64,000 bases of DNA, taken from positions 94,743 to 158,742 of the forward strand of contig DASZRO010000018.1 in the NCBI GenBank assembly GCA_035550055.1, written 5' to 3'. The notes under the pieces were generated by a model. It saw only the letters and a list, made by a program, of their open reading frames with translations. It was not told where the DNA came from and did not search any database. Below, piece after piece: positions 4,095 through 57,798 of the stretch (positions within the stretch are counted from its first letter, which is position 1; the number at the start of each line of letters is the position of its first letter). The position numbers were made by a program, and so were the translations under genes. The DNA is from Mycobacteriales bacterium. GTDB taxonomy: Bacteria > Actinomycetota > Actinomycetes > JAFAQI01.

Positions 4095-5587
4095 CCGCCC
4101 GACCTCGGCAGGAAGCGGCCGTCGCAGCGGTAGCCGGTGGCAGGGTCGTCCACGCGCTCAAAGCCTCCGTTCTCGAGCTTCCACAGGATGTAACAGTGTG
4201 GCCCGCCCTTTGCGCTCGGATCGACCGGAGCGATCAAGCCGTTGGAGTCGAAGTTCTTGATCCGGCGCAGCGAGGCCAGCAGCGTCTTGCGGTCGAGAGT
4301 CGGTCCGGCGGTCTCGGCAGCCTGCTCCAGCATCCGGTCGTCGGCCCATGCGTACATCGCGTAGAGGTTGATCGGCTGTCCCGGATAGGTCCGCGTGAAC
4401 CAGTACTGGAAGAGCTTGACCTCCGGTGTCTCGTCGGCGGGGTCGGTGTTGAAGAACAGGGCGTAGGAGTTCCAGCCGAGGATTCCGTTGAGGTCGGACT
4501 TCGCTCCTGCGTAGTCGCTGAGGAACGCCTGGTCATAGGCGATCGGGATGATGTTGATCAGACTCGACGGGCAGCCCGCCTGGCGTTCGTTCTGGATCAT
4601 CGTCGCGGCATTGCCCGCCGGCTCGGTCAGCTCGAACAGCACCTGGATGTGCTCCTGCTGGCACAGCTTGACGAAGTCGCCCTGGAAGCTGCTGTTCGTC
4701 GGCTGCTCCAGGATGCTGTCGACGAAGTGCCATCCCTCTGCTTGCGCCGAGTGGACCATGTTGGCCTGTTGCGCGACCGCCGACGGGATGTTCTCGACGA
4801 TCGACCCCACGTGGTCGAGCTTCGTCCCGAACTTCTGCTTGTAGTAGCGGAACATGCCGGTGGAGAACCCGCTGCCGCCGGCGGAGATGTCGAAGTGGTT
4901 GGGCGGGGTGTAGGCGGTCGGATCGAGGGCGACGTGGATGTCGGCGACACCAGGGTTTGCCTTCACGATCGAGGCGCCGCAGCCGTCGTAGAGGGCGAAG
5001 GTGCCCGACAGCGCGAAGCTCCTCCCGATCAAGCTCTGTGTCGCGTTCTCGTCCTGCGTGCAGCTCGCCGCGTCGTCGACCACGTCCACCTTCACCTGCC
5101 GACCGCAGATGCCGCCGGAGGTGCTGTTCACGTAGTTCGCGAACGCCTCGCCGCCTTGGACTGCTCCTTCGAACAGCCCGGACACCGGGCCGCTGAGCGT
5201 CGCGACCTCGCCGAGGGTCATCGTCGTCGCGGTCAAGCCGACGTCGGTCCCGCCCGAACAGCTCTGCGCCACCGGAGCGGTCGCCACCGGTGTGGTTGAC
5301 GGACGTCCGGGATTCGCAGCCGAGCCGGTCGTCACACCTGCCGGCGCGCTGGGCTGCGACACAACGCCTGGTACGCCGGAGGGCGCGGCGGAGGCCACCG
5401 CGCTCGCCGACGCGACCGCAGCCACCGCCGGCGGCGGCGCGACCGCTCGGTCGTTCAGGACCGCGTGCTCTGCCTGGCTGCGCACGTCGCCGGGCAGCCG
5501 GGCGCCGCACGCAGTGGACAGCAGCCCGACCAGGGCGGCCGCCACGCGCAGCCGGCCACCGCGCCGCAGTCGGGTGCGGGTGCTCAT
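4091..5587 (-). CDS. lipoprotein, periplasmic solute-binding protein (type I PBP, LivK-like), orphan
   Basis: Signal peptide plus lipobox (LLSTAC), a long Ala/Pro/Ser/Thr-rich linker, then a PBP1 fold. No permease or ATPase genes nearby. Overlaps both neighbouring genes by 4 nt. Confidence 0.7.
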   Translation of the reverse strand: MSTRTRLRRGGRLRVAAALVGLLSTACGARLPGDVRSQAEHAVLNDRAVAPPPAVAAVASASAVASAAPSGVPGVVSQPSAPAGVTTGSAANPGRPSTTPVATAPVAQSCSGGTDVGLTATTMTLGEVATLSGPVSGLFEGAVQGGEAFANYVNSTSGGICGRQVKVDVVDDAASCTQDENATQSLIGRSFALSGTFALYDGCGASIVKANPGVADIHVALDPTAYTPPNHFDISAGGSGFSTGMFRYYKQKFGTKLDHVGSIVENIPSAVAQQANMVHSAQAEGWHFVDSILEQPTNSSFQGDFVKLCQQEHIQVLFELTEPAGNAATMIQNERQAGCPSSLINIIPIAYDQAFLSDYAGAKSDLNGILGWNSYALFFNTDPADETPEVKLFQYWFTRTYPGQPINLYAMYAWADDRMLEQAAETAGPTLDRKTLLASLRRIKNFDSNGLIAPVDPSAKGGPHCYILWKLENGGFERVDDPATGYRCDGRFLPRSGG

Positions 5588-10195: not shown

Positions 10196-10785
10196 CGCGG
10201 TTCCGTCATCAACGCGGTTGCGTCCGCCATCAGCGAGGGCAGATCGTCGTACCTCGCATAACCCATGCCGGCCGAGAGCAGCGCCCCGATGAACGTGAAC
10301 GTCAGGACCGCAGCAACCCGAGAGTCCTCGTCGCGGCCGAGCGCGTCCGCGAGCCGCTTGCCGATCGCGGAGCCGATTCGGTCGCGCAGGACCTGCACGT
10401 CGGCGTCGTGCGCGAGCAGGGCCGTCGTGACGCCCGCGGCGAGCTCCGGCTCGTCCGCGACGAGCAACGCAACCGACCGCATCGCGTCAGCGACGCGATC
10501 CGCCCGCCGCTGACGTCGGCTCGGCGCCGGCGGGTCGAGCGCGTCGAGCCGGCGCCAGAAGACCTCCGTCAGCAGGTGCTCCTTGCTCGCGAAGTACGTG
10601 TACGCCGTCGCCGGCGACACCCCAGCCCGGCGCGCGACCGCGCGCACGGTCAGACCGTCGAAACCGGTCTCGGTGACCTCGGCCACCGCCGCGTCGACGA
10701 GTGCGGTCACGGTGTCCGCCTGCCGACGCGCGAGCGCCCGACGGGGCGCCTCCGAGGCGGCCGGACTGGACACGTGTCCAGACAC
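10192..10785 (-). CDS. TetR/AcrR family transcriptional regulator
   Basis: HTH segment LTVRAVARRAGVSPATAYTYFASKEHLL. Start uncertain: the GTG at 10785 avoids a 60 nt overlap, whereas the track ORF extends to 10854. 4 nt overlap with the downstream P450. Confidence 0.7.
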   Translation of the reverse strand: MSGHVSSPAASEAPRRALARRQADTVTALVDAAVAEVTETGFDGLTVRAVARRAGVSPATAYTYFASKEHLLTEVFWRRLDALDPPAPSRRQRRADRVADAMRSVALLVADEPELAAGVTTALLAHDADVQVLRDRIGSAIGKRLADALGRDEDSRVAAVLTFTFIGALLSAGMGYARYDDLPSLMADATALMTEPR

Positions 10786-23155: not shown

Positions 23156-24259
23156 ATGGCCGACGAAACGGTCTTCAAGCCCGGACTGGAAGGCGTCATC
23201 GCCTTCGAAAGCGAGATCGCGGAGCCCGACAAGGAAGGTTCGGCGCTGCGCTACCGAGGCGTCGACATCGAAGATTTGGTCGGCCACGTGAGCTACGGCA
23301 ACGTGTGGGGCCTGCTGGTCGACGGCCGGTTCGCGCCGGGCCTACCGCCCGCCGAGCCGTTCCCGGTCCCCGTCCACTCCGGCGACATCCGGGTCGACGT
23401 ACAAAGCGCTCTGGCCACGTTGGCTCCGGCATGGGGGCTTCAGCAGCTGCTCGACATCGACGACGCGCAGGCGCGCGACGACCTGGCCCGCTGCTCGGTC
23501 ACCGCGATGTCCTTCGTCGCCCAGTCGGCGCGTGGCCTCGGCGAGCCCATGGTGCCGCAGAAGCGGATCGACGAGGCGTCCACCGTGGTCGAGCGGTTCA
23601 TGATCCGCTGGCGGGGCGAACCCGACCCGGCGCACACCAAGGCGGTCGACGCCTACTTCGTCTCGGCGGCGGAGCACGGCATGAACGCGTCCACGTTCAC
23701 CGCGCGGGTCATCGCCTCCACCGGCGCCGATGCGGCCGCGTGCCTGTCCGGAGCGGTCGGGGCGCTGTCCGGTCCCCTGCACGGCGGTGCGCCCTCCCGC
23801 GTCCTGAAGATGCTCGACGAGGTGGCGGCCGAAGGCGACGCGCGTCGCTACGTGAAGCGGCTCTTGGACTCCAAGGAGCGCCTCATGGGGTTCGGCCACC
23901 GCGTCTATCGCGCCGAGGATCCGCGCGCCCGGGTGCTTCGTCGTACCGCGAAGGAGCTCGGCGCTCCCCGCGTCGAGGTCGCGGAGGCGCTCGAGAACGC
24001 CGCGCTCGCCGAGCTGCGGGAGCGCTACCCCGACCGCGTTCTCGCGACCAACGTGGAGTTCTGGTCGGCGGTCGTCCTCGACTTCGCGCAGGTGCCGGCG
24101 CACATGTTCACGTCGATGTTCACCTGCGCCCGGGTGGCCGGCTGGAGCGCCCACATCCTCGAGCAGAAGCGGACCGGCCGGCTGATCCGGCCGTCGGCGA
24201 AGTACGTCGGCCCAGCCAACCGCCCCGTCTCCGCGGTAGAAGGCGCCGACCAGCTCTAA
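23156..24259 (+). CDS. citA: citrate synthase (CitA-type)
   Basis: Citrate synthase fold with the GFGHRVY catalytic His motif. 367 aa. Confidence 0.88.
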   Translation: MADETVFKPGLEGVIAFESEIAEPDKEGSALRYRGVDIEDLVGHVSYGNVWGLLVDGRFAPGLPPAEPFPVPVHSGDIRVDVQSALATLAPAWGLQQLLDIDDAQARDDLARCSVTAMSFVAQSARGLGEPMVPQKRIDEASTVVERFMIRWRGEPDPAHTKAVDAYFVSAAEHGMNASTFTARVIASTGADAAACLSGAVGALSGPLHGGAPSRVLKMLDEVAAEGDARRYVKRLLDSKERLMGFGHRVYRAEDPRARVLRRTAKELGAPRVEVAEALENAALAELRERYPDRVLATNVEFWSAVVLDFAQVPAHMFTSMFTCARVAGWSAHILEQKRTGRLIRPSAKYVGPANRPVSAVEGADQL

Positions 24260-24380
24260 CCCAGCAACGCTCCATTGCTGGGGCTCCCTCCCCAGCAACG
24301 CTGCGTTGCCGGGGGATTGGCCGGGCAACGCTGCGTTGCTGGGGGATAACCCCACGTAATGGAGCGTTGCTGGTCAGTAC
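24260..24380. repeat. tandem array (4 units) of palindromic intergenic repeat CCCCAGCAACGCTGCGTTGCTGGGG
   Basis: Read directly between the citA stop and the serC start. Units are about 25-35 bp, each with a 9 bp inverted arm pair. The same unit recurs at 56922-57014. Confidence 0.8.
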
Positions 24381-24389
24381 CCTTGGCGG

Positions 24390-25514
24390 GTGACTGACGC
24401 CACTCTCGAGATTCCCGCCGACCTGCGGCCAGGCGATGGCCGTTTCGGCTCTGGCCCGACGAAGGTCCGGCCGGAGCAGCTTGCAGCCCTTGCTGCGACC
24501 GGGACGTCCTACCTCGGTACGTCGCACCGGCAGGAGACCGTGCGCTCGGTCGTTCGGCGGGTCCGAGAGGGCATCGCGACGCTGTACGACCTGCCGGACG
24601 GATACGAGGTGATCCTCGGCAACGGCGGCGCGACGATCTTCTGGGACATCGCAACCCTCTGCCTGATCGAGCGTCGCTCGCAGCACATGGCGTTCGGTGA
24701 GTTCTCGACGAAGTTCGCAAAGGCGACCGCCGCGGCACCGCACCTCGAAGAGCCCTCGGTCCTCAAGGCCGACTACGGCCACGCCCCTGACGCCTTCGCG
24801 CCGGAGGCCGGGATCGACGCCTACTGCCTGCCGCACAACGAGACCTCCACCGGCGTGATGACCAGCATCCAGCGACCCGTCGGCGCGGACGCCGGAGCGC
24901 TGATGCTGGTGGATGCGACCAGCGCCGCGGGCGGTCTTCCCGTCGACCTGACGCAGACCGATGCCTATTACTTCGCGCCGCAGAAGGGCTTCGCCTCGGA
25001 CGGCGGGCTGTTCTTCGCGATCCTGTCACCCGCGGCGATCGAGCGCAGCGAGCGGCTCATCCCGCAGCGCTGGGTGCCGTCGACGCTGGACCTCGGAATC
25101 CACATCGAGCAATCGAGGCTCGAGCAGACCTACAACACACCCGCGCTCGCGACGGTGTTCCTCATGGCCGAGCAGGTCGAGTGGATGAACGCGCAGGGTG
25201 GGCTGGCCTGGGCAACCGAGCGCACTGGGGAGTCGGCGCGAATCCTCTACACGTGGGCGGACAAGGCGCCGTACGCCGAAGCCTTCGTCACCGACCCGGC
25301 GAAACGCTCGACCGTCGTCGGCACGATCCGGCTGGACGAGGCGATCGAGGCTGACAAGGTGGTCAAGGCACTGAAAGCCAACGGGATCCTCGACGTCGGC
25401 GCATACCGCGCGGCCGGGTACAACGGCCTGCGCGTCGGCATGTTCCCGGCGATCGATCCGGCAGACGTCGAAGCGCTCACCGCCTGCATCGACTGGGTGG
25501 TCGACCGGCTGTGA
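24390..25514 (+). CDS. serC: phosphoserine aminotransferase (actinobacterial SerC type)
   Basis: N-terminus FGSGPTKVRPEQL and the class-V aminotransferase fold. GTG start. Confidence 0.88.
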   Translation: MTDATLEIPADLRPGDGRFGSGPTKVRPEQLAALAATGTSYLGTSHRQETVRSVVRRVREGIATLYDLPDGYEVILGNGGATIFWDIATLCLIERRSQHMAFGEFSTKFAKATAAAPHLEEPSVLKADYGHAPDAFAPEAGIDAYCLPHNETSTGVMTSIQRPVGADAGALMLVDATSAAGGLPVDLTQTDAYYFAPQKGFASDGGLFFAILSPAAIERSERLIPQRWVPSTLDLGIHIEQSRLEQTYNTPALATVFLMAEQVEWMNAQGGLAWATERTGESARILYTWADKAPYAEAFVTDPAKRSTVVGTIRLDEAIEADKVVKALKANGILDVGAYRAAGYNGLRVGMFPAIDPADVEALTACIDWVVDRL

Positions 25515-32329: not shown

Positions 32330-33157
32330 TTATTCGCCGAGCGCTTCGTTCATCGAACCGGACCGAAACCCCCTCGGGTCCACCTCCACCGACGCGAATC
32401 CGGAGACCGCCGCGAGCAGGTCGCCCCGCCGCGCGAGTGAGGCCACCATGTCGGCATCCACCTCGACGCGGGCGACGTCGCCGAGATCACGAACTCGCAG
32501 GTCCCGTACATCGAGGCCGGCCTCGCGCAGGGCGGAGCGCAGGCCGGCCTCGGCCCGCTCGACGCGGGCCAGCCGGTACGGCGAGACCTCGATCCCATAG
32601 GCGATCCGGCTCGACAGGCAGGCCGCCGCCGGCTTGTCCCAGGTCGGCAGGTCCCACGCCCGGCTGAGCTCGCGGACCTGCGGCTTGGTGAGCCCCGCGT
32701 CCAGTAGCGGGGTGACTGCGCCGCGTTCGGCCGCGGCCCGGATCCCAGGACGGAACCCGGCGACGGCGTCGTCGGCGTTGGTGCCGGTCGCGACGTACGC
32801 CAGGCCGAGGTCATCCGCCAGCGGCGTGAGCACGTCGAGCAGCTCCGCCTTGCAGAAGAAGCAACGGTCGGCGCCGTTGGCCCGGTACCCCTCGCGCGAC
32901 ATCTCGTCGGTGCGCGGCGTCAGGTGACGTACGCCGAGGCCGGCCGCGAAGTCCCTGGCCTGGTCGAGCTCGCTGGCCGGCAGGCTCGCCGACACCGCGG
33001 TCGCCGCCGCGACCCGGTCGGCCCCGAGCGCGCGCGCCGCGGCGGCCACCAGGAACGCGGAGTCGGCGCCCCCGCTGAAGGCGACCAGCACGCTGCCGAG
33101 CTCGGCAAGCCGCGCCTGCAGGACCTCGAGCCTCTCGCGCGATCCGGCCGAACCCAC
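32330..33157 (-). CDS. larE: PP-loop ATP pyrophosphatase, LarE-type sacrificial sulfur transferase family
   Basis: SGGADS PP-loop plus CFFCK and the conserved LarE/TIGR00268 core. Confidence 0.75.
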   Translation of the reverse strand: MGSAGSRERLEVLQARLAELGSVLVAFSGGADSAFLVAAAARALGADRVAAATAVSASLPASELDQARDFAAGLGVRHLTPRTDEMSREGYRANGADRCFFCKAELLDVLTPLADDLGLAYVATGTNADDAVAGFRPGIRAAAERGAVTPLLDAGLTKPQVRELSRAWDLPTWDKPAAACLSSRIAYGIEVSPYRLARVERAEAGLRSALREAGLDVRDLRVRDLGDVARVEVDADMVASLARRGDLLAAVSGFASVEVDPRGFRSGSMNEALGE

Positions 33158-33215
33158 CCCGCGAGGCTATCCACCCCGCGCGGCTATCCACCCCGCGCGG
33201 CTATCCACCCCGCCG
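33153..33215. repeat. 17 bp tandem repeat GCTATCCACCCCGCGCG, 3-4 copies, first copy overlapping the larE start
   Basis: Direct reading of ccaccccgcg recurring with a 17 bp period. Confidence 0.7.
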
Positions 33216-33270
33216 AGCCCAACGTTGTTGGTCTCTCAGGGCCGTCGAAAGACCAACAACGTTGGGCTCG
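33211..33270. repeat. long perfect hairpin repeat (22 bp stem) CCGAGCCCAACGTTGTTGGTCT-15nt-AGACCAACAACGTTGGGCTCGG
   Basis: Perfect inverted repeat read in the sequence, followed by a G-rich tract. A second copy lies at about 53057-53115. Confidence 0.8.
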
Positions 33271-33302
33271 GCGTTGGGGGGCGGCGTTGGGAGGGCGGGG
33301 GG

Positions 33303-35315
33303 TCAGGCCAGGGCGGCGACGAGGGCCGGGGCGTTCGGCGTACCGAGGCCGGTCGAGTCGTCGTAGCCGGGCAACGCCTGCAAGGTTCCGAGTACGCCGA
33401 TCGTTCGCAGCGTGTAGATGACCGCGGACTTCGGGTTGTCCCCGGTCGTGTAGTCCGGCCGGACGTCGGCCAGGCGGGTCAGCGCACCGCGCTTGGCCAC
33501 CGGCACCGGGTCGTAGAACAGCCGCTGCCGCTGCGCCGCGGTGCGCGAGTCGGCGTACATCGTCGGTGTCACCAGCCCGAGCCGGTGATGCGCCTCGGCG
33601 TCCGCGAGCGCCAGCAAGCCGGTGAACAGCGGCGAGGCCAGACTGGTCCCGCCGATCCGGTACTCGCCATAGCGGGTCGCGCCATCGGCGAAGCTCTGCG
33701 TCAGCCCGAGCGCGATCCCGGTGGTCGGGTCGGCGACCATCGACACGTCCGGCTCGACGCGGCCCGGCTGCATCAACCCGCCGTACGTCGCCTCGTCAGC
33801 CGGCACGATCCCGTACTGCCAGGCCGGCTCGCGGAAGATCGTGCTGTCGCCGCCGCCCCCGCCGTACATGTAGACCTTGTGCTGGTAGTCCCACTTCCCC
33901 TTGGTGAACGGGATCTTCTGCGTCCCCCAGTACGACTCGGAGACGCGCGCTCCGGTTCGCCCGATCTGCAGCGTCGTGCCGCCGACCGTGACGACCCCGG
34001 GGCTGGTGGTCGGGAAGTCCGCGACCCGATGCCCGGTGAGGGCGAGCTCGTCGCCGTCGTCACCGGAGGAGAAGGCGATCGTGACACCTTCGGCGGCGGC
34101 CTCGTTCGTGATCGCGTTGAGCACCTGTACGTCGCCGAGCACGGTGTCTTCGCTGTCATCCCCCCACGAGTTGCTCACCAGGTCGACCTTGCCGCTCTCG
34201 ACGGCTTGCGCCAGCGCGAGCAGGAGGTTGTCGACGCCGACCCCGATGCCTGCGACCTCTTCGTACGGGAGGTTGGCGACGGCCGAGTAGTAGGCGATGC
34301 TCGCGTCGGGCGCCATCCCGTGAACCGCTTCGATGTCGAGGGTCTCCTCACCGGCCCAACCCTGTCCGTCGAGGATCGGTACGCCGAGCAACGACAGCTC
34401 CGGCAGGCTCGACTCACCGGGGAAGGTGTGCTGCGTGAGCTGGCCGGGCCGCAACCGCGGCAGCCCCATCCGCTGCGACCACGTGTCGACGTCGGACTCG
34501 ACGGTCGGCGAGGCGTAGGCGTCGACGATCCCGACGGTGACGCCGCGGCCGGTCGAGTGCACCTGGTTCACGCCGTACGCCGAACGGATCTGGCCCATCG
34601 TGTAGCCGCAGACCGCGTACGGCGCGTGCCGGCCCTGGTAGGAGGGCAGCGTCGAGGCGACCTTCTGCCCGTAGTAGCGCGAGCACGGATGCGCGTTGAT
34701 GTACCCCGTCGGTGGTGACGCGTCCGACACCGCCGGGGTCTGCGCGAGCCCGACCACTGTCGCCGCGAGCGGCCGCAGCGCAGTGGGCATCGTCGGCTGC
34801 GACAGCGGCGCGCGCAGCAGGCGGCCGGCGACGTCGAACAGGCCGAAGGTCGTGGCGAACACCTTCCCGACCAGCGCGGACGTGGCGTGTGCCGTGATCA
34901 GCGTGCCGCCGGGCGTCGTGTTGTCGATCGTGAACCCCGCGTGCCGCAGCCAGGTCCGCGCCGCGGCCGTCTCGGCCGGCGCCGGTCCGAACCGGCGGGC
35001 GAACTCGGCGCGGGTCAGGAAGTGCCGGTACGACGCCGACGTCGGGTCGCTGACCGCCGCGTCGAAGCGCCGCAACGCGGCCGGATGACGACCCTTCAGC
35101 AGCACCGAGAACTGCACCAGCGCGTCCGGCGACTCGAGCTTCGCCGGCAGGACGTCTCGCGCCCACGCCGGGATCGCCTCGATCACCGACGCGAGGCTCC
35201 GCACCGGTTGCGCGGTCGGGCCAGCGGCGAGCGCCGGCGCTTCCAGGGCGGTGACCGCGAGTACTGCGGCGGCCGCGGCGAGGCGCAGGGTCGACCCGGT
35301 CTTCACCCCGCTCAT
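33303..35315 (-). CDS. secreted S53 family peptidase (sedolisin) with pro-kumamolisin activation domain
   Basis: Signal peptide, N-terminal pro-kumamolisin activation domain, and a catalytic Ser in GGTSLASPLFTG. Confidence 0.85.
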   Translation of the reverse strand: MSGVKTGSTLRLAAAAAVLAVTALEAPALAAGPTAQPVRSLASVIEAIPAWARDVLPAKLESPDALVQFSVLLKGRHPAALRRFDAAVSDPTSASYRHFLTRAEFARRFGPAPAETAAARTWLRHAGFTIDNTTPGGTLITAHATSALVGKVFATTFGLFDVAGRLLRAPLSQPTMPTALRPLAATVVGLAQTPAVSDASPPTGYINAHPCSRYYGQKVASTLPSYQGRHAPYAVCGYTMGQIRSAYGVNQVHSTGRGVTVGIVDAYASPTVESDVDTWSQRMGLPRLRPGQLTQHTFPGESSLPELSLLGVPILDGQGWAGEETLDIEAVHGMAPDASIAYYSAVANLPYEEVAGIGVGVDNLLLALAQAVESGKVDLVSNSWGDDSEDTVLGDVQVLNAITNEAAAEGVTIAFSSGDDGDELALTGHRVADFPTTSPGVVTVGGTTLQIGRTGARVSESYWGTQKIPFTKGKWDYQHKVYMYGGGGGDSTIFREPAWQYGIVPADEATYGGLMQPGRVEPDVSMVADPTTGIALGLTQSFADGATRYGEYRIGGTSLASPLFTGLLALADAEAHHRLGLVTPTMYADSRTAAQRQRLFYDPVPVAKRGALTRLADVRPDYTTGDNPKSAVIYTLRTIGVLGTLQALPGYDDSTGLGTPNAPALVAALA

Positions 35316-37354
35316 CTTGCCGCCCGGCGCGGGCCGGCGTGCCCTCGCACGCCGGCCAGCGCCGCGACCAGCGGGCCGGCGTTCGGCGTACCGAGACCGG
35401 TCGAGTCGTCGTAACCACGCAGCGACTGGAGCGTGCCGAGGTTCGACAGGATCCGCAGGCTGTAGGCGACCGGCGACTTGGGGTTGTCGGTGGCGGTGTG
35501 GTCCGGCCGGACGTCAGCCAACGTCGACAGGTCGTCGCGCAGCGGCACCGTCACCGGGTCGTAGAACAACCGCTTGCGCTCGGCCGCCTTGCCGGCCTCG
35601 GCGTAGAGGGTGGGCGTGACCAGCCCGAGCCGCTGGTGGCGTTCGGCGGCCGCCAGCGCGAGCAGCCCGGAGAACAGCGGACACGACACGCTCGTCCCAC
35701 CGATCCGGAACTCGCCGTAGCGGTTCGAGCCGTCGGCGAAGTGCTCCGTCAGTCCGATCAGCATGCCGGTGGTGGTGTCGGCCACCATCGACACGTCGGG
35801 CACGACCCGACCCGGCGCGCTCAGCCCGCCGTACGTCGCCTCGGCCGGCGGGACGACGCCGCGCTGCCATGCCGGCTCGGCGTACGCCGTGCTCACGCCG
35901 CCTCCGGCGCCGGAGCTGAACGCCTTGTCCTTCAAGTCCCACGAACCCTTGTCCAGCTTCGCGATGTCGGTGCCCCAGTACGACTCGGAGATCCGCTTGC
36001 CGTTGGCGCCGACCTCCAGCGTGGTGCCGCCGACCGCCGTCACCTCGGGGCTGGTCGCCGGGAAGTCCGCCTGCCGCTTGCCGCTGGCGGCCAGCTCGTC
36101 GCCGGAGTCGCCGGAGGAGAAGTCGAGCGTGATGCCCTCCGCCGCGGCCTGGTTGGCGACGGCGTCGAAGATCTGCAGGTCGCCCGGGGTCAGGTGCTCG
36201 CCGGCCGCTCCCCAGGAGTTGCTGATGATCGCGACCTTGTCATCGGACACCGCCTGCGCCAGCGCGACGAACAGCGGCTCGATCCCGATCTCGAAGCCGA
36301 CCTCGTTGAGACCGATCGCTCCGCCAATCGCGGCGTAGTAGTCGATGTCGGCACCGGGCGCCATCGCGTGGACCGCCTCGACATCGAGGCTCTCCTCCGG
36401 CTCGACGTCCTGCGGGTCGATGATCGGCAGGACCACCGACACCTCCGGCAGGCTCGACAGACCCGGAAGGACGTGTTGGGTGAGCTGGCCGGACCGCAGC
36501 GCCGGAAGACCCATGTGACGCGACCAGGTGTCGACGTCGGACTCGATCGTCGGCGACGCGTACGGGTCGACGATGCCGACCGCGGCGCCCTTGCCGGTCG
36601 AGGCGACCTGGTTGACGCCGTACGCCGACCGCAGCTGCCCGGCGGTGTAGCCGCACAACGCGTAGGGCTGGTGCTTGCCGAGGTAGGTCGGCAGCGACTT
36701 GGCGATCTTCTGGCCGTAGAAGTGCGAGCACGGCCGGGCGTTCACGTACGCCGGCGCCGGCCCGGCGTCCGTCACGGCGCGGTTCTGGGCGAGTCCCATC
36801 ACGGCCGACACGAACGGGTGCAGCGCACCGGGCAGCGACGGCTCGGTCAGCGGCGAGCGCAGCAGCTCACCGGCCACCCGGAACAACCCGAACGTCGTGT
36901 CGAACACCTTGCCGACGACCGACGCCGCCGCGTGCGCGGTGATCAGCGACGTGCTCGTCGAGTCGATCACGAAGCCGGCGTCGCGAAGCCACGACGTGGC
37001 GGCGGCCACCTCGGCCGCAGTCGGGCCGAACCGCCGCTGGTACTCCGCCCTGGTCAGGAAGTGCCGGTACGACGGCGAGGCCGGGTCGCTGACCCGGGCC
37101 ACCAGCTCGTTGAGCGCGGCCGGGTGGCGGCCCTTCAACAGCAGCGAGACCTGGACCGGCGCGGCCGCGGGCTCGACCCGTGCCGGTGCCACGCCGCGGG
37201 CCCACGACGGGATGGCGTCGAGCACGGCGTCAAGCCGCGGCGCCGACCGGTCCGACGCGGTGGCGGCGAGTGCCGGCGCCCCTGTCGCGGCGATTGCGAC
37301 GACGGCCGCGACCGAGATGAAACGCATGGCGGGGCGAGGCTTCATCGGGCTCAT
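35312..37354 (-). CDS. secreted S53 family peptidase (sedolisin), tandem paralog
   Basis: Same architecture as the previous gene, with GGTSVSCPLFSG. ATGA overlap with the paralog. Confidence 0.85.
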   Translation of the reverse strand: MSPMKPRPAMRFISVAAVVAIAATGAPALAATASDRSAPRLDAVLDAIPSWARGVAPARVEPAAAPVQVSLLLKGRHPAALNELVARVSDPASPSYRHFLTRAEYQRRFGPTAAEVAAATSWLRDAGFVIDSTSTSLITAHAAASVVGKVFDTTFGLFRVAGELLRSPLTEPSLPGALHPFVSAVMGLAQNRAVTDAGPAPAYVNARPCSHFYGQKIAKSLPTYLGKHQPYALCGYTAGQLRSAYGVNQVASTGKGAAVGIVDPYASPTIESDVDTWSRHMGLPALRSGQLTQHVLPGLSSLPEVSVVLPIIDPQDVEPEESLDVEAVHAMAPGADIDYYAAIGGAIGLNEVGFEIGIEPLFVALAQAVSDDKVAIISNSWGAAGEHLTPGDLQIFDAVANQAAAEGITLDFSSGDSGDELAASGKRQADFPATSPEVTAVGGTTLEVGANGKRISESYWGTDIAKLDKGSWDLKDKAFSSGAGGGVSTAYAEPAWQRGVVPPAEATYGGLSAPGRVVPDVSMVADTTTGMLIGLTEHFADGSNRYGEFRIGGTSVSCPLFSGLLALAAAERHQRLGLVTPTLYAEAGKAAERKRLFYDPVTVPLRDDLSTLADVRPDHTATDNPKSPVAYSLRILSNLGTLQSLRGYDDSTGLGTPNAGPLVAALAGVRGHAGPRRAAR

Positions 37355-37393
37355 TTCGCTGGGTGGATCAGACCATCCTGCACGTGAAACGAC

Positions 37394-37429
37394 GAAAGGG
37401 ACCAGCCCGGTACGGGGCTGGTCCCTTTC
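37394..37429 (-). terminator. intrinsic terminator downstream of groEL2
   Basis: GAAAGGGACCAGCCC-ggtacg-GGGCTGGTCCCTTTC, a 15 bp perfect stem followed on the minus strand by a U-rich stretch (TTTCGTCGTTT). Confidence 0.7.
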
Positions 37430-37445
37430 GGGAGTTGGCTGGACT

Positions 37446-39210
<1,765 letters not shown>

Positions 39211-39218
39211 AGCCATTG

Positions 39219-39245
39219 TTAGCACTCGACCCGGTCGAGTGCAAG
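39219..39245. promoter_or_regulatory. CIRCE element (HrcA operator) 2 upstream of groEL2
   Basis: TTAGCACTC-N9-GAGTGCAAG. Confidence 0.75.
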
Positions 39246-39439
39246 CCGTCGGTCGGGGCCCGAAATCCCCGGTCGGTGAGCTCGCGGCGCGTCCCGCGTC
39301 ACGCCCGGCCGAACGTGTCGTTATTGTGTGCGGGCGCGCCCAACCGGGCGCGCGTCGCATTCGCACCGCCAAACCTGTCCGGCGAATGCGTCGCCTTCAA
39401 TCCCAGACGGACGGGGCCGGGGACCCAAAAGTTCTACCC

Positions 39440-39556
39440 AGCAACTGGAACGCGCACGCGCGTTTCACGGAGCGATTCGCTCCTTGGGGTGAAGCCGTCT
39501 CACGACGGCCGGGTGATCCACTCACCCGAACCCGACAGCTAACTCGGCAGGCGTCG
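39440..39556 (+). ncRNA. candidate ydaO-type (c-di-AMP) riboswitch in the NlpC/P60 leader
   Basis: Segments TTGGGGTGAAGCC, CCGGGTGATCC and ACCCGAACCCGACAGCTAACTCGGCAGGCG resemble conserved ydaO blocks. The SD sequence GGAG lies just downstream. Confidence 0.4.
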
Positions 39557-39567
39557 GAGTGGACTTC

Positions 39568-40377
39568 ATGCTGCCTTCGCATACCTGTGCCCGCTTTCGC
39601 ACCGTCGTACTCGCCGGCCTGACCGCCGGTTTGGTCGTGTCCGCCGCCGGTACTGCCTCCGCCGCCCCGACCGGGCGACCCACGAGCACCGCGACCGACA
39701 CCGAGACCCACTCGGGGACGAACTCCGGGTCCCACTCGGGGACGAACTCCGGGACGGCGAGCCCCGCCGACCCCACCCCGACCGACCCGACCACGACGAG
39801 CCCGTCCGACCCGACCGCGCCCACATCTCCTGGCGATCCGGGCGCGGCGACCGGCGATCCGAGCGATCCGACGACCGGCCCGACACTTCCGATCGACCCG
39901 AACCTGCCGGCCATCACCTTCGAGCTGCCGCAGGCCAGCGCCCACTTGCGCTACGAGCGCGCCCGGTTGCGCCGCCGCGAATGGCACCAGCACGCGGTGA
40001 GCGCGGTGCTCACGGAGGCGCGCCGCCAGGCCGGCAAGCCGTACGTCTACGGCGCAGCCGGACCGAGTTCCTTCGACTGCTCCGGGCTGGTCCGCTACGT
40101 CTTCGGCCACGCGATCGGTGACTGGCTGCCGCACAACGCCGCCGCGCAGTACGCCGTCATCGAACACATCAAGCGTCGTGACCTCGAGCCGGGCGACCTT
40201 GTCTTCCAGGAGTCGGGCGGCTACCCGTTCCACGTCGGGATCTACGCCGGCCACGACAAGTGGTGGCACGCGCCGCACACCGGCGCGGTCGTGCACAAGC
40301 AGACGATCTACCGCGGCCACCTGTTCTACGGCCGAGTCCTCACCAGCCGGATGGCCCGGCAGCGCACCCGCCACTAA
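39568..40377 (+). CDS. secreted NlpC/P60 family peptidoglycan hydrolase
   Basis: Signal peptide, a Thr/Pro/Ser-rich linker, and C-terminal YVYGAAGPSSFDCSGLVRYVFGHAIG...H...H. The ATG at 39568 has an RBS; the track's alternative start is at 39559. Confidence 0.8.
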   Translation: MLPSHTCARFRTVVLAGLTAGLVVSAAGTASAAPTGRPTSTATDTETHSGTNSGSHSGTNSGTASPADPTPTDPTTTSPSDPTAPTSPGDPGAATGDPSDPTTGPTLPIDPNLPAITFELPQASAHLRYERARLRRREWHQHAVSAVLTEARRQAGKPYVYGAAGPSSFDCSGLVRYVFGHAIGDWLPHNAAAQYAVIEHIKRRDLEPGDLVFQESGGYPFHVGIYAGHDKWWHAPHTGAVVHKQTIYRGHLFYGRVLTSRMARQRTRH

Positions 40378-40458
40378 GAAAACACAAACGTGACGCGTGA
40401 GCCCTCCTGAGGCGGGTCACCCACCTCAGGAGGCTGCTCTCGTCACGTTTGTGTTCGC
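40378..40458. repeat. nested palindrome P1: GAAAACACAAACGTGACG..[CCTCCTGAGG-loop-CCTCAGGAGG]..CGTCACGTTTGTGTTCGC
   Basis: 15 bp outer arms and 10 bp inner arms read directly. The right arm encodes the C-terminus of the 40426-41352 gene. Confidence 0.8.
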
Positions 40459-41352
40459 TTCGGCACCGAGGTCGAGCAGCCGGCGTACCGCGGTCACGAC
40501 GTACGCCGGATCCTGCGTGACGTCGAACCACGTCACGACGGCAAGGCGCCAGCCGGCGGCGGTGATCGCCGTCCAACGACGCCGATCCCGGCGGAAGTAC
40601 TCGCGCGAGGAGTGATAGGCGTAGCCGTCGCATTCGAGTACGGCGCGCAGCTGCGGCCAGGCGAAGTCGACGAAGCCGACCCAGCCGGTTGCGCTGCTCT
40701 TCAACGAGAGCTGAGTGACCGGGATCGGCAGCCCTTCGCGCCAGAGCAGGACGCGGGTCAGTGACTCGAGCACCGAGCCGCTGAGCGGATCGACCAGGCC
40801 GGCGACGGTCTGGATGCGCAGCCGGCCCGGCCCTTTGGCGCCGCGAGCGACCGCCGCGAACTCCGCGTCGGTGAAGTGGCGCTGCCGGATGAAGGCATCG
40901 ATGATCGCGACCGCCTGGTCGATCGGTGCGTGCCGGGCGATGTCGAGACAGGTACGCAGCGGCGTCGTCACCAGGGCGCCGTTGCGGAACTCGACGTCGG
41001 TGCGCGCAAGGTCCGCACGGTGCAGCCGGACGCCTGCCACCGCCTCGGCGTACCGCCCTCGATGGCGCGGCACCGTCACGTGGATCTGGGTCAACGGCGT
41101 CGGCAGGTCGACGCCGTGCCAGGCGACCGCGGATTGGTAGCTGATCACGGCGTACCAGCCGTTGGCGATCCGACGCGGCTCGGGCAGCGGGTCGCCGACG
41201 GCGTACACCCCGCGTGCGATGCGGGCGACCGAGCCGGTGCTCACGAGCTCACTCAGCACCCGGGCGCTGACCCCGGTCGCGAGCACTTGCGAGCGGGTCA
41301 GGACCCCGCCGTTGTCACGCGCGATCGGGGCGATGAGGGTGAGCGCATCCAC
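40426..41352 (-). CDS. AbiEi_4 (type IV TA antitoxin-like N-domain) plus DUF559 (Vsr/PD-(D/E)xK-like endonuclease fold) protein
   Basis: N-terminal segment GVLTRSQVLATGVSARVLSELVSTGSVARIARGVYAV and C-terminal segment VDFAWPQLRAVLECDGYAYHSSREYFRRDRRRWTAITAAGWRLAVVTWFDV. Confidence 0.75.
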   Translation of the reverse strand: MDALTLIAPIARDNGGVLTRSQVLATGVSARVLSELVSTGSVARIARGVYAVGDPLPEPRRIANGWYAVISYQSAVAWHGVDLPTPLTQIHVTVPRHRGRYAEAVAGVRLHRADLARTDVEFRNGALVTTPLRTCLDIARHAPIDQAVAIIDAFIRQRHFTDAEFAAVARGAKGPGRLRIQTVAGLVDPLSGSVLESLTRVLLWREGLPIPVTQLSLKSSATGWVGFVDFAWPQLRAVLECDGYAYHSSREYFRRDRRRWTAITAAGWRLAVVTWFDVTQDPAYVVTAVRRLLDLGAEANTNVTRAAS

Positions 41353-43165: not shown

Positions 43166-43288
43166 AGAGGCCTTCCGTCCTCATCTTCCCCCCGGACGGT
43201 TGCCCGAAGGCCGGATGTGGCACCTGCCCGAGACGGGTGGTTGCCGGGGCTTCAACGGGCCGGTTCCCTCAGCCCCTCTTGATGAGAG

Positions 43289-53037: not shown

Positions 53038-53056
53038 CGACCCACCCTATTGATCC

Positions 53057-53115
53057 GCCGAGCCCAACGTTGTTGGTCTTTCGCGGCGCCCGAAAGACCA
53101 AAAAGGTTGGGCTCG
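53057..53115. repeat. second copy of the long hairpin repeat GAGCCCAACGTTGTTGGTCTTTCG-7nt-CGAAAGACCAAAAAGGTTGGGCTC
   Basis: Read directly. Shares CCGCCGAGCCCAACGTTGTTGGTCT with the copy at 33211-33270. Confidence 0.75.
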
Positions 53116-53119
53116 ACGC

Positions 53120-56357: not shown

Positions 56358-56921
56358 GTGTCTGTGATCGCGCGCCGTGCCACACAGCGCAGCATCGCCG
56401 CGGGCGCGCTCGCGCTCGTGCTGCCTGTCCTTGCCGGATGCGGCATGGAGGCCAAGGACGAGACGAGCAAGGAACACACCCAGATCCAGGCCGCGAGCAA
56501 CCACATCGGCGCGATCAAGATCCGCAACGCATTCCTCACGACGCTGCCCTCGGCGACGTCGGTCGACTCCGGCACGACCTACCTCGTGGTCACCCTCGTC
56601 AACGACGGCCGGACCCCGGACGCCCTCACGGGTGTCACCACGCCACTGGGCACCGCATCCCTTCAGGGCGGGCCGGTGACGCTGCCACCCGGAGTCGTCG
56701 TCTCGATCAGCGACCCGGAGCTCGACCCGAGCGCGACCACGCTCGCCGTCACTACGGCGACCGCGCCGACGGTGGGGACGACCGAGCCGGTGTCCTTCAG
56801 CTTCGCGACCGCGGGAACCACCGAGAACCTCGACGTACCGGTGGTCGCGCCCGGCGGCAGCCTCTCACCCGACCAGGTGATCCCGACCACCCAGGCCACG
56901 GTCGCCACCCCCATCGTCTGA
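56358..56921 (+). CDS. lipoprotein of unknown function
   Basis: Signal peptide plus lipobox LAGC. A Thr/Val-rich beta-rich body. Confidence 0.55.
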   Translation: MSVIARRATQRSIAAGALALVLPVLAGCGMEAKDETSKEHTQIQAASNHIGAIKIRNAFLTTLPSATSVDSGTTYLVVTLVNDGRTPDALTGVTTPLGTASLQGGPVTLPPGVVVSISDPELDPSATTLAVTTATAPTVGTTEPVSFSFATAGTTENLDVPVVAPGGSLSPDQVIPTTQATVATPIV

Positions 56922-57014
56922 CCTTCCCCCCAGCAACGCTGCGTTGCTGGGGGATCTCCCGGGCGACGCTGCGTTGCTGGGCAAAAAGCCGAGGCAACGC
57001 TGCGTTGCTGGGGT
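56922..57014. repeat. tandem array (3 units) of palindromic repeat CCCCAGCAACGCTGCGTTGCTGGGG
   Basis: Same unit as at 24260-24380, between convergent genes. Confidence 0.8.
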
Positions 57015-57052
57015 GGGGTGGGGGTCGGGGTGGGGTGGGGGTGGGGTGGGGT
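57014..57052 (+). repeat. GGGGT-type G-tract (8 runs of G4-5), potential G-quadruplex, abutting the gpmA stop
   Basis: TGGGGTGGGGTGGGGGTCGGGGTGGGGTGGGGGTGGGGTGGGGTC read directly. Confidence 0.75.
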
Positions 57053-57798
57053 CAGCGGCCTTGGTTGGCGACGGCTTCCGCCGCGGCCTTGGCGGCGTCG
57101 GCGTCGAGATAGGTCCCACCCGCGACCAGCGGCCTCAGCTGGTCGTCGAGCTCGTACGCCAGCGGGATGCCGGTCGGGATGTTGAGCTCGACGATCGCCT
57201 TGTCGCTGATCCCGTCGAGGTGCTTGACCATCGCCCGCAGCGAGTTCCCGTGCGCCACCACGAGCACCGTCTTGCCGGTACGCAGGTCCGGCACGATCGC
57301 GTCGTACCAGTACGGCAGCATCCGCGCGATCACGTCGGCGAGGCACTCGGTACGCGGCACGATCTCCGGTGGCAGCGACGCGTACCGCGGATCGCCGACC
57401 TGAGAGAACTCGTCGTCATCAGGCAGCGGCGGCGGCGGGGTGTCGAACGAACGCCGCCACACCATGAACTGGTCGTCGCCGAACTCCGCCCGCACCTGCG
57501 CCTTGTCCTTGCCCTGCAACGCCCCGTAGTGGCGCTCGTTGAGCCGCCAGCTCCGGCGTACCGGAATCCACTGCCGGTCGCAGGCGACCAGTGCGTTGCC
57601 GGCCGTGACGATCGCGCGCTTGAGCACGGACGTGTGAAGTACGTCGGGAAGCAGCCCGTGCTCGGCGAGCAGCTCACCCGCGCGGACCGCCTCGGCGAAT
57701 CCCTTGTCCGTCAGCCCGACGTCGACCCAGCCGGTGAACAGGTTCTTCGAGTTCCACTCGCTCTCGCCGTGGCGAAGCAAGACCAGCCGTCCCGTCAC
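57052..57798 (-). CDS. gpmA: 2,3-bisphosphoglycerate-dependent phosphoglycerate mutase
   Basis: [12 protein letters not shown]... and HGNSLRA. GTG at 57798 gives a GTGA overlap with the upstream gene; the track ORF extends to 57909. Confidence 0.85.

Follow-up and report, generated by a model that had tools for sequence, protein, structure and literature searches.

The window analysed here is a 64 kb stretch of DNA with a G+C content of approximately 70%, and its 55 or so open reading frames (ORFs) correspond to ordinary chromosomal genes, among them pntB, P450 genes, a serA-like gene, pdxH, groEL, a thrC-like gene, otsA/B, gdh, cysS, ispF, carD, a mshA-like gene and gpm. The source is a soil actinobacterium, which the homologues of SerC and Gpm place among the uncultured "Mycobacteriales bacterium" metagenome-assembled genomes (MAGs). 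Two intergenic spacers are occupied by clusters of a palindrome of approximately 25 nt with the consensus CCCCAGCAACGC-T-GCGTTGCTGGGG, present in seven units in the window. The four units of array A separate a citA-type citrate synthase gene from serC, and the three units of array B separate gpm from an LpqE-like gene (Table 1).

Table 1. Position of the repeat units, of the neighbouring genes and of associated features. Positions refer to the window unless the locus of a relative (L134 and following) is named; scores in bits are those of the covariance model of the unit.
Feature	Position	Strand	Remarks
Citrate synthase gene (citA type)	23156–24259	+	Pfam PF00285, E = 8e-92; upstream of array A
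Array A, four units	24260–24373		citA–serC spacer
Unit u1	24260–24283	+	CCCAGCAACGCTCCATTGCTGGGG; variant centre TCCA; partner of u4 in the long hairpin; 31.7 bits
Unit u2	24290–24315	+	CCCCAGCAACGCTGCGTTGCCGGGGG; near-consensus; arms with 11 matched pairs and one mismatch; 40.1 bits
Unit u3	24321–24345	+	CCGGGCAACGCTGCGTTGCTGGGGG; left arm degenerate (CAGC to GGGC), pairs with the right arm of u2; 28.2 bits
Unit u4	24350–24373	−	Inverted, half-degenerate; + strand reads CCCCACGTAATGGAGCGTTGCTGG; 28.0 bits on the − strand
TACCCT, −10-like TANNNT hexamer	24378–24383	+	6 nt before the serC GTG (24390); 4 nt past the end of array A
Phosphoserine aminotransferase gene, serC	24390–25514	+	Pfam PF00266; homologues named phosphoserine aminotransferase/transaminase; downstream of array A
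LpqE-like gene	56364–56921	+	Gene call and Pfam PF04314 taken from L156, a 99.9%-identical locus
Array B, three units	56926–57013		gpm–lpqE spacer
Unit v1	56926–56954		Perfect, 13-bp arms
Unit v2	56958–56982		Array B; has, as a variant, the single GACG occurrence
Unit v3	56989–57013		Array B
(GGGGT)n tract, ~8 copies	57009–57052		Reads (ACCCC)n on the − strand
Phosphoglycerate mutase gene, gpm	57052–57798	−	248 aa; Pfam PF00300; 100% identical to P0121, named phosphoglyceromutase
~72-nt palindrome of relatives	L134 7963–8036; L135 4305–4378; L161 651–735; L162 546–630		citA–serC spacer

The repetition was far beyond chance. With up to three mismatches, the 19-mer core of the unit (CAGCAACGCTGCGTTGCTG) gave 11 strand-matches in the window, all of them at 24262–24341 and 56931–57010, for a mean of 0.02 in shuffled sequences, and none of 100 shuffles reached 11 matches. 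Over the 64 kb, an unfiltered search with a covariance model of the unit recovered the seven units only, the next match having an E-value of 0.38. The two arrays lie 32.6 kb apart, their flanks have nothing in common, and in register they are 82% identical across 84 nt, linkers included. The identical unit had been placed at 56922–57014 in the preliminary description; the recurrence is real and consists of three units. The units follow a regular period of 30–31 nt, measured between starts in array A and in the array of a second genome presented below and between centres in array B, instead of the 25–35 bp first reported, and they are joined by very short (4–7 nt) and partly conserved linkers.

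When the central T was used to orient the units, CCAGCAACGCT, the left arm, was nearly invariant and the right arm frequently degenerate. Long clean arms were seen only in v1 (13 matched pairs) and u2 (11), those of u1, u3, v2 and v3 being imperfect, which corrects the 9-bp inverted arms first given for each unit of array A. Every array shows a conserved 12–14-mer, CCAGCAACGCT(S)C, in forward orientation at its left end and inverted at its right end. In a stem alignment of 13 units, 78% of the cells were paired. Covariation in this stem was not above that of shuffled alignments (107 of 500 shuffles equalled it), so that selection for a hairpin and inheritance of a symmetric sequence are inseparable in these data.

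Array A begins at the base that follows the citA stop codon (TAA, 24257–24259), with unit starts spaced by 31, 30 and 31 nt. The existence of four palindromic units in the citA–serC spacer was confirmed; their head-to-tail arrangement was not, as the degenerate u4 is inverted. The reverse complement of u4 has CCAGCAACGCTCCATT in common with u1, including the derived TCCA/TGGA centre, and the inverted position of u4 together with its u1-like centre makes of array A a single inverted repeat. This repeat is imperfect, with 53-nt arms (24261–24313 and 24321–24373) that are 81% complementary, and it is bounded by perfect terminal inverted repeats of 16 nt (CCAGCAACGCTCCATT and AATGGAGCGTTGCTGG). 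Inside, the altered right arm of u2 (GCCGG) is complementary to the altered left arm of u3 (CCGGGC). The predicted pairing is nested, u1 with u4 and u2 with u3, with predicted folding energies of −99.2 kcal/mol for the RNA (z −9.2) and −58.6 kcal/mol for the DNA (z −9.8). Contrary to the first description, part of the spacer is left free by the array: its last 16 nt (24374–24389, TCAG TACCCT TGGCGG) are unique sequence and are conserved in relatives. The SerC, CitA and PntB products of the window had no exact match, and array A is thus known from one assembly.

Array B sits between the 3' ends of two convergent genes, the LpqE-like gene and gpm. The stop codon of the LpqE-like gene is located 4–6 nt upstream of the array, depending on the chosen unit start, and the unit centres are 30 and 31 nt apart (TRF period 30). 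The array was recovered base-for-base in two independent assemblies, L156 (GCA_964558155.1) and L157 (SRR12170510), of strains that are 99.9% identical, and an assembly artefact is thereby ruled out. Strong folding is predicted for both of its strands, with the nested long hairpin formed only in part. The (GGGGT)n tract abuts the array and reaches the gpm stop codon. Read on the gpm strand, the stop codon is followed by the (ACCCC)n tract and then by the hairpins, and the same order was seen at 33205–33300 and in the array of the second genome. Rho-terminator predictors look for a comparable arrangement, in which a pause hairpin comes after a C-rich rut site. The (ACCCC)n tract could be a C-rich rut-like tract or, on the other strand, a G-quadruplex.

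Exact matches to the 19-mer were searched in the genomes of 185,579 species (one per species), in the JGI metagenome contigs and in the IMG/VR viral contigs. Thirteen stretches were found in the species genomes, 16 in the JGI metagenomes and none in IMG/VR, and the 19-mer was not found in plasmid and phage collections. Most matches in genomes and metagenomes appear to be lone copies without neighbouring units and to lie in coding sequence, and chance is their best explanation. A 15-mer scan of the viral contigs had yielded, among the matches listed, single-copy and chance-like occurrences, and 19-mers were used instead. Lone intergenic 19-mers, without flanking C or G runs and retrieved by the query itself, were observed in a Frankiaceae MAG (L127) and in L148, and we leave them unassigned.

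The only other true array across the scans was found at 4564–4680 of L128, a contig of a Mycobacteriales MAG. It comprises four units (a to d) with starts 30, 31 and 31 nt apart, has a TAA stop codon inside the first unit, and lies between apparently convergent ORFs. The same nested hairpin is predicted, a with d and b with c (−91.7 kcal/mol, z −6.3). Apart from the array, L128 and the window have no nucleotide similarity, and the two loci are non-homologous. This MAG contains one exact consensus 19-mer in its whole assembly, and it is the only other carrier in the species-representative collection. The unit family is not confined to one genome, yet it is rare. According to the preliminary description, a motif present only at two sites and not conserved in relatives would point to a local duplication; conservation is indeed lacking at the orthologous sites, as detailed below, whereas L128 extends the family beyond two local copies.

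Such a local and non-mobile origin would start from a hairpin arisen in place and amplified by slippage, the second site being then copied by ectopic recombination or gene conversion, with neither mobility nor function. The regular tandem period suits slippage, only two sites (seven units) exist within approximately 68 kb of DNA from the source strain, at 32.6 kb from each other, and no transposase, target duplication or end tag was found. We nevertheless hold this origin to be improbable. The same unit, with the same period and nested layout, occurs at an unrelated locus of a different MAG, the flanks of arrays A and B share nothing, and the same spacers of relatives have been independently struck by other palindromic elements, which points to a general insertion process.

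The unit was absent from the citA–serC spacers (16–98 nt) of all seven relatives compared, whose SerC proteins are 86–95% identical to that of the window. L139 offers a clean empty site, with a 16-nt spacer that reads TAACCC/GTACCCTTGG (the slash marking the junction). Compared with it, the window possesses approximately 114 extra nucleotides precisely at this junction (blastn break 24262/24377), and this comparison revealed no duplicated flank that could correspond to a target-site duplication. At the same spot, L134, L135, L161 and L162 possess a different palindrome of approximately 72 nt (GCAGAGTGGCTCTAC...GTAGAGCCACTCTGC; −58.6 kcal/mol, z −9.9), at varying stages of decay among the four relatives and decaying in L161. 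The spacers of L136 and L137 showed no significant structure (z about 0). Within a single clade, two or more unrelated hairpin elements have struck the citA–serC spacer.

The situation was similar at the second site. The gpm–lpqE spacer is reduced to 6 nt in L158, and in L159 and L160 it contains two identical perfect palindromes, GGGCAATGTGACATTGCCC (10753–10771 and 10805–10823 in L159). The (GGGGT)n tract, like array B, is missing from L158 and L159. The outer arms of GGGCAATGTGACATTGCCC are the GGGCAA...TTGCCC arms of u2 and u3, and the inner 3 bp are symmetrically changed (CGC/GCG to TGT/ACA). GGGCAATGTGACATTGCCC was considered as a compensated variant of the unit; a model built without it gave an E-value above 2.7, and homology is not claimed. 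No unit was present in any of the DNA fetched from relatives. The presence in these spacers of other palindromes in place of the unit indicates that citA–serC and gpm–lpqE are hot spots of gain and loss, and the existence of orthologous spacers without arrays indicates that the arrays are dispensable.

A −10-like hexamer followed by a GTG start codon (TANNNT-N6-GTG) is kept in front of serC in the window and in the seven relatives (as TACCCT, TACTCT or TAGAAT), even in the otherwise unalignable L137. It is located at 24378–24392 in the window, 8039–8054 in L134, 4471–4485 in L136, 9602–9619 in L137 and 967–982 in L139, with equivalents in L161 and L162. The mycobacterial −10 consensus and its spacing are the established basis for reading such a motif as a leaderless promoter. 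The conservation of the motif suggests that serC may have its own leaderless promoter just beyond array A. Only 4 nt separate the end of the array from the conserved hexamer downstream, and from this position it is plausible that the array could affect serC expression, as first proposed.

A second proposal of the preliminary description was a reiterated operator for a dimeric regulator. In a fuller version of it, a dimeric transcription factor would bind each unit, and serC would be cooperatively controlled by an array phased at approximately three helical turns per unit. The unit has a perfect dyad symmetry, the 30–31 bp spacing is near three helical turns, and array A covers the −35 region of serC up to the vicinity of its putative −10 element. 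However, no promoter lies near array B, which is flanked by the stop codons of convergent genes, or near the L128 array, which is flanked by the ends of apparently convergent ORFs; this location, together with the dispensability of the arrays in close relatives, disfavours a sequence-specific operator. In addition, no regulator gene adjoins array A or B, and the units are missing upstream of serC in the seven relatives in which the −10-like element is conserved. The near invariance of the left arm and the degeneracy of the right arm also fit inter-unit pairing better than two equal half-sites. An inverted duplication or inter-unit pairing would explain this asymmetry, and the changes that match between partners (u1 and u4, u2 and u3, a and d of L128), better than equivalent protein half-sites. 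We regard a role as operator as very improbable. Actinobacterial operator consensuses were also considered, and none is known to fit.

We favour, with moderate confidence, the interpretation that the arrays are clusters of a lineage-specific extragenic palindrome of the REP/BIME or REPIN kind, low in copy number in the approximately 68 kb available and situated at gene 3' ends. The dispersed REP- or MITE-like family first suggested is thus retained in kind, on the basis of two unlinked sites, of the third array in L128 and of the empty site of a relative; no transposase and no target duplication were found, and the copy number appears low. Like a REP, which is an imperfect palindrome of 20–40 nt able to form a stem-loop, the 25-nt unit has pairing arms of up to 13 bp. 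REPs are extragenic and lie mostly just downstream of coding regions, and each of the three arrays (A, B and L128) either overlaps a stop codon or starts within 0 to approximately 6 nt past it. Both unit orientations separated by short linkers, as in BIMEs, are seen in array A and L128, and the arrays are species-specific and polymorphic between relatives. The REPs of Enterobacteria, Pseudomonas and Stenotrophomonas have been proposed to play roles in mRNA stabilisation, termination and DNA structure (PMC3733652; PMC3993855). Actinobacteria, to which the present host belongs, are not mentioned in the text of a REP survey of 2013 (PMC3733652).

There are also differences. The GTAG/CGTC tag of REPs is missing, with neither GTAG nor CTAC in 24260–24377 or in array B, the linkers are very short (4–7 nt) and the period strict, and the apparent copy number (two arrays in approximately 68 kb) is low compared with the hundreds of copies of classical REPs. 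No RAYT was found nearby: a Pfam search of the 55 or so ORFs of the window detected neither a transposase domain (IS200/RAYT-type or other) nor a cas domain. RAYT genes are typically single-copy, and one may lie outside these 64 kb.

The resemblance to REPINs lies in the whole element, approximately 110 nt of inverted REP copies giving one long hairpin (predicted for array A and L128, and in part for array B), and the empty orthologous sites in relatives fit an insertion. REPINs are REP doublets forming hairpins, which also occur as higher-order tandem clusters and are found in some lineages but not in others (Bertels and Rainey 2011, PMC3116915). Here, each arm contains two sub-repeats (a nested 2+2 arrangement) as compared with one REP per arm, and neither a cognate RAYT nor a population of near-identical copies was demonstrated. 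MITEs such as Correia/NEMIS, RUP or ERIC share with the arrays a size of approximately 115 nt, terminal inverted repeats, an intergenic location, the potential to be transcribed into a hairpin and an empty site in a relative. They differ in that neither a target-site duplication nor a full-length IS related to the arrays was found here, and in that a single short palindrome, repeated in tandem, makes up the interior in place of unique sequence.

Other classes of repeats were considered. CRISPR repeats are separated by unique spacers of similar length (about 26–72 nt) and usually have cas genes nearby; with linkers of 4–7 nt and no cas gene in the window, the arrays are not CRISPR repeats, in agreement with the first assessment. 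Integron attC sites were rejected, as the R' and R'' cores do not fit. In Rfam, no family reached its gathering score for the arrays, and the low-scoring hits, far below gathering scores, were generic hairpin models of plant and animal microRNA precursors.

We propose the following model for the REP- or REPIN-like palindrome. The element would have been inserted, or would have expanded in place, in very short spacers (formerly 6–16 nt) just past the stop codons of housekeeping genes. The whole array, as RNA, single-stranded DNA or cruciform DNA, can fold into one long nested hairpin or into separate unit hairpins. It may have spread or expanded as DNA, either by the transposition of folded single strands by some enzyme, as in the REP/RAYT systems, or by slippage and recombination between units. 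The host would tolerate it only at gene ends, where an insertion is probably harmless.

The stability predicted for the arrays is very high on both strands, as RNA and as DNA. A hairpin followed by a U-tract was not found on either strand of either array, the only T5 run being in a linker, 6 nt from the stem. A canonical intrinsic terminator was rejected, as no U-tract lies within 0–2 nt of a GC-rich hairpin at either array. The mycobacterial RNA polymerase requires a U-tract for intrinsic termination, and gene-end hairpins without one have been proposed to act like REPs by stabilising 3' ends (PMC3993855). These two points favour an exonuclease barrier or a pause over termination. The likeliest effect of the arrays would thus be that of a strong 3'-end hairpin acting as a barrier to 3'-5' exonucleases. 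The hairpin may also be a point of pausing or insulation for read-through and convergent transcription, rather than of autonomous termination. At citA–serC, the array would separate the read-through from citA from the probable leaderless initiation of serC 4 nt downstream, and it would have replaced whatever held the −35 region of serC.

A different explanation would be a terminator family selected by the host and conserved in sequence, comparable to TRIT, in which transcripts would be ended or processed by a factor that recognises the conserved motif as double-stranded RNA or DNA; under this explanation the arrays are reiterated terminators and not selfish DNA. TRIT, the "Tuberculosis Rho-independent terminator" motif, is a palindrome conserved in sequence, mostly bidirectional and located very near stop codons, with approximately 147 copies scattered through the genome and a proposed binding factor; reports of it are confined to the genus Mycobacterium (Gardner et al. 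2011, PMC3152330). Like TRIT, the arrays consist of a palindrome that is conserved in sequence and reads almost identically on either strand, lie in a narrow window at stop codons (0 to approximately 6 nt past them, or overlapping one in L128), lack a canonical U-tract and are hosted by Mycobacteriales, and the succession of stop codon, C-rich tract and hairpins on the gpm strand is close to a rut site with its pause hairpin. Unlike TRIT, with which the comparison was made by description only, they are tandem arrays of three or four units, an arrangement that is not among the described features of TRIT, and they belong to an uncultured lineage outside Mycobacterium. Moreover, relatives do with a spacer of 6 or 16 nt and no hairpin, which makes the arrays dispensable, no U-tract exists at the arrays, and TRIT predictions themselves coincide with few of the 3' ends mapped in M. 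tuberculosis. We consider this explanation unlikely, while giving it some weight.

REP/RAYT systems are not known to have been described in uncultured Mycobacteriales. If the family is dispersed, the arrays would represent actinobacterial repeats of REP or REPIN type devoid of the usual GTAG tag, and would offer a handle on their origin without a known RAYT. Two bolder readings, which we regard as quite doubtful, are that the units belong to a REPIN-like and vertically inherited mobile system of uncultured Mycobacteriales, whose cognate enzyme would recognise the CCAGCAACGCT arm on folded single-stranded DNA, or that a termination or processing factor binds their hairpins in a sequence-specific manner, in which case the TRIT idea would apply outside the genus Mycobacterium as well. 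The arrays also bear on the role of the many 3' hairpins without U-tract in high-GC actinobacteria, a question still open for mycobacteria. Annotators working on this clade may treat the citA–serC and gpm–lpqE spacers as hot spots of changing palindromic elements. Otherwise, the unit is an ordinary kind of bacterial intergenic repeat, in a lineage where clustered extragenic palindromes are little described.

Additional features were observed in the window. A second family of long hairpins is present at 33210–33273 and 53055–53118 (86% mutual identity, −65 and −44 kcal/mol, core CCCAACGTTGTTGG...CCAACAACGTTGGG), each copy being located just past the stop codon of a − strand gene (a sedolisin-like gene and ispF). 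On the transcript, a C-rich tract (33274–33300) comes before the hairpin at 33210–33273, whose spacer also contains a 17-nt tandem repeat, CCACCCCGCGCGGCTAT, at 33154–33213 (3.5 copies, 97% matches). L136 has approximately 50 nt where the window has approximately 183 nt for this spacer. A hairpin with a similar core, ACGTTGTTGG...CCAACAACGT, was noticed by eye only at another site of L134 (48–112), for which blastn gave no match. Two tandem paralogous genes for proteases of the sedolisin type (pro-kumamolisin / S8-S53) are found at 33303–35315 and 35312–37354, with approximately 75–79% DNA identity, for a single copy in L136.

An 18-bp bidirectional terminator-like hairpin (37393–37430) is located past the end of the groEL-type gene (37446–39155, − strand). 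Approximately 65 nt upstream of this gene, a CIRCE-like inverted repeat occupies positions 39197–39246 (TTAGCACTC-N9-GAGTGCAA, overlapped upstream by GAGTGCTAG), and we take it to be the expected HrcA operator. Two riboswitches scored above the Rfam gathering threshold: a c-di-AMP riboswitch of the ydaO type (39382–39568, + strand), upstream of an NlpC/P60 hydrolase gene, and a SAM riboswitch (43178–43288, − strand), upstream of a PALP-family (threonine-synthase-like) gene that is followed by a ThiS-family gene. An imperfect palindrome of 85 nt (40376–40460), with 42-nt arms that are 81% complementary, lies past the NlpC/P60 stop codon, before the end of a convergent gene of the AbiEi-antitoxin-like / REase_MTES_1575 type.
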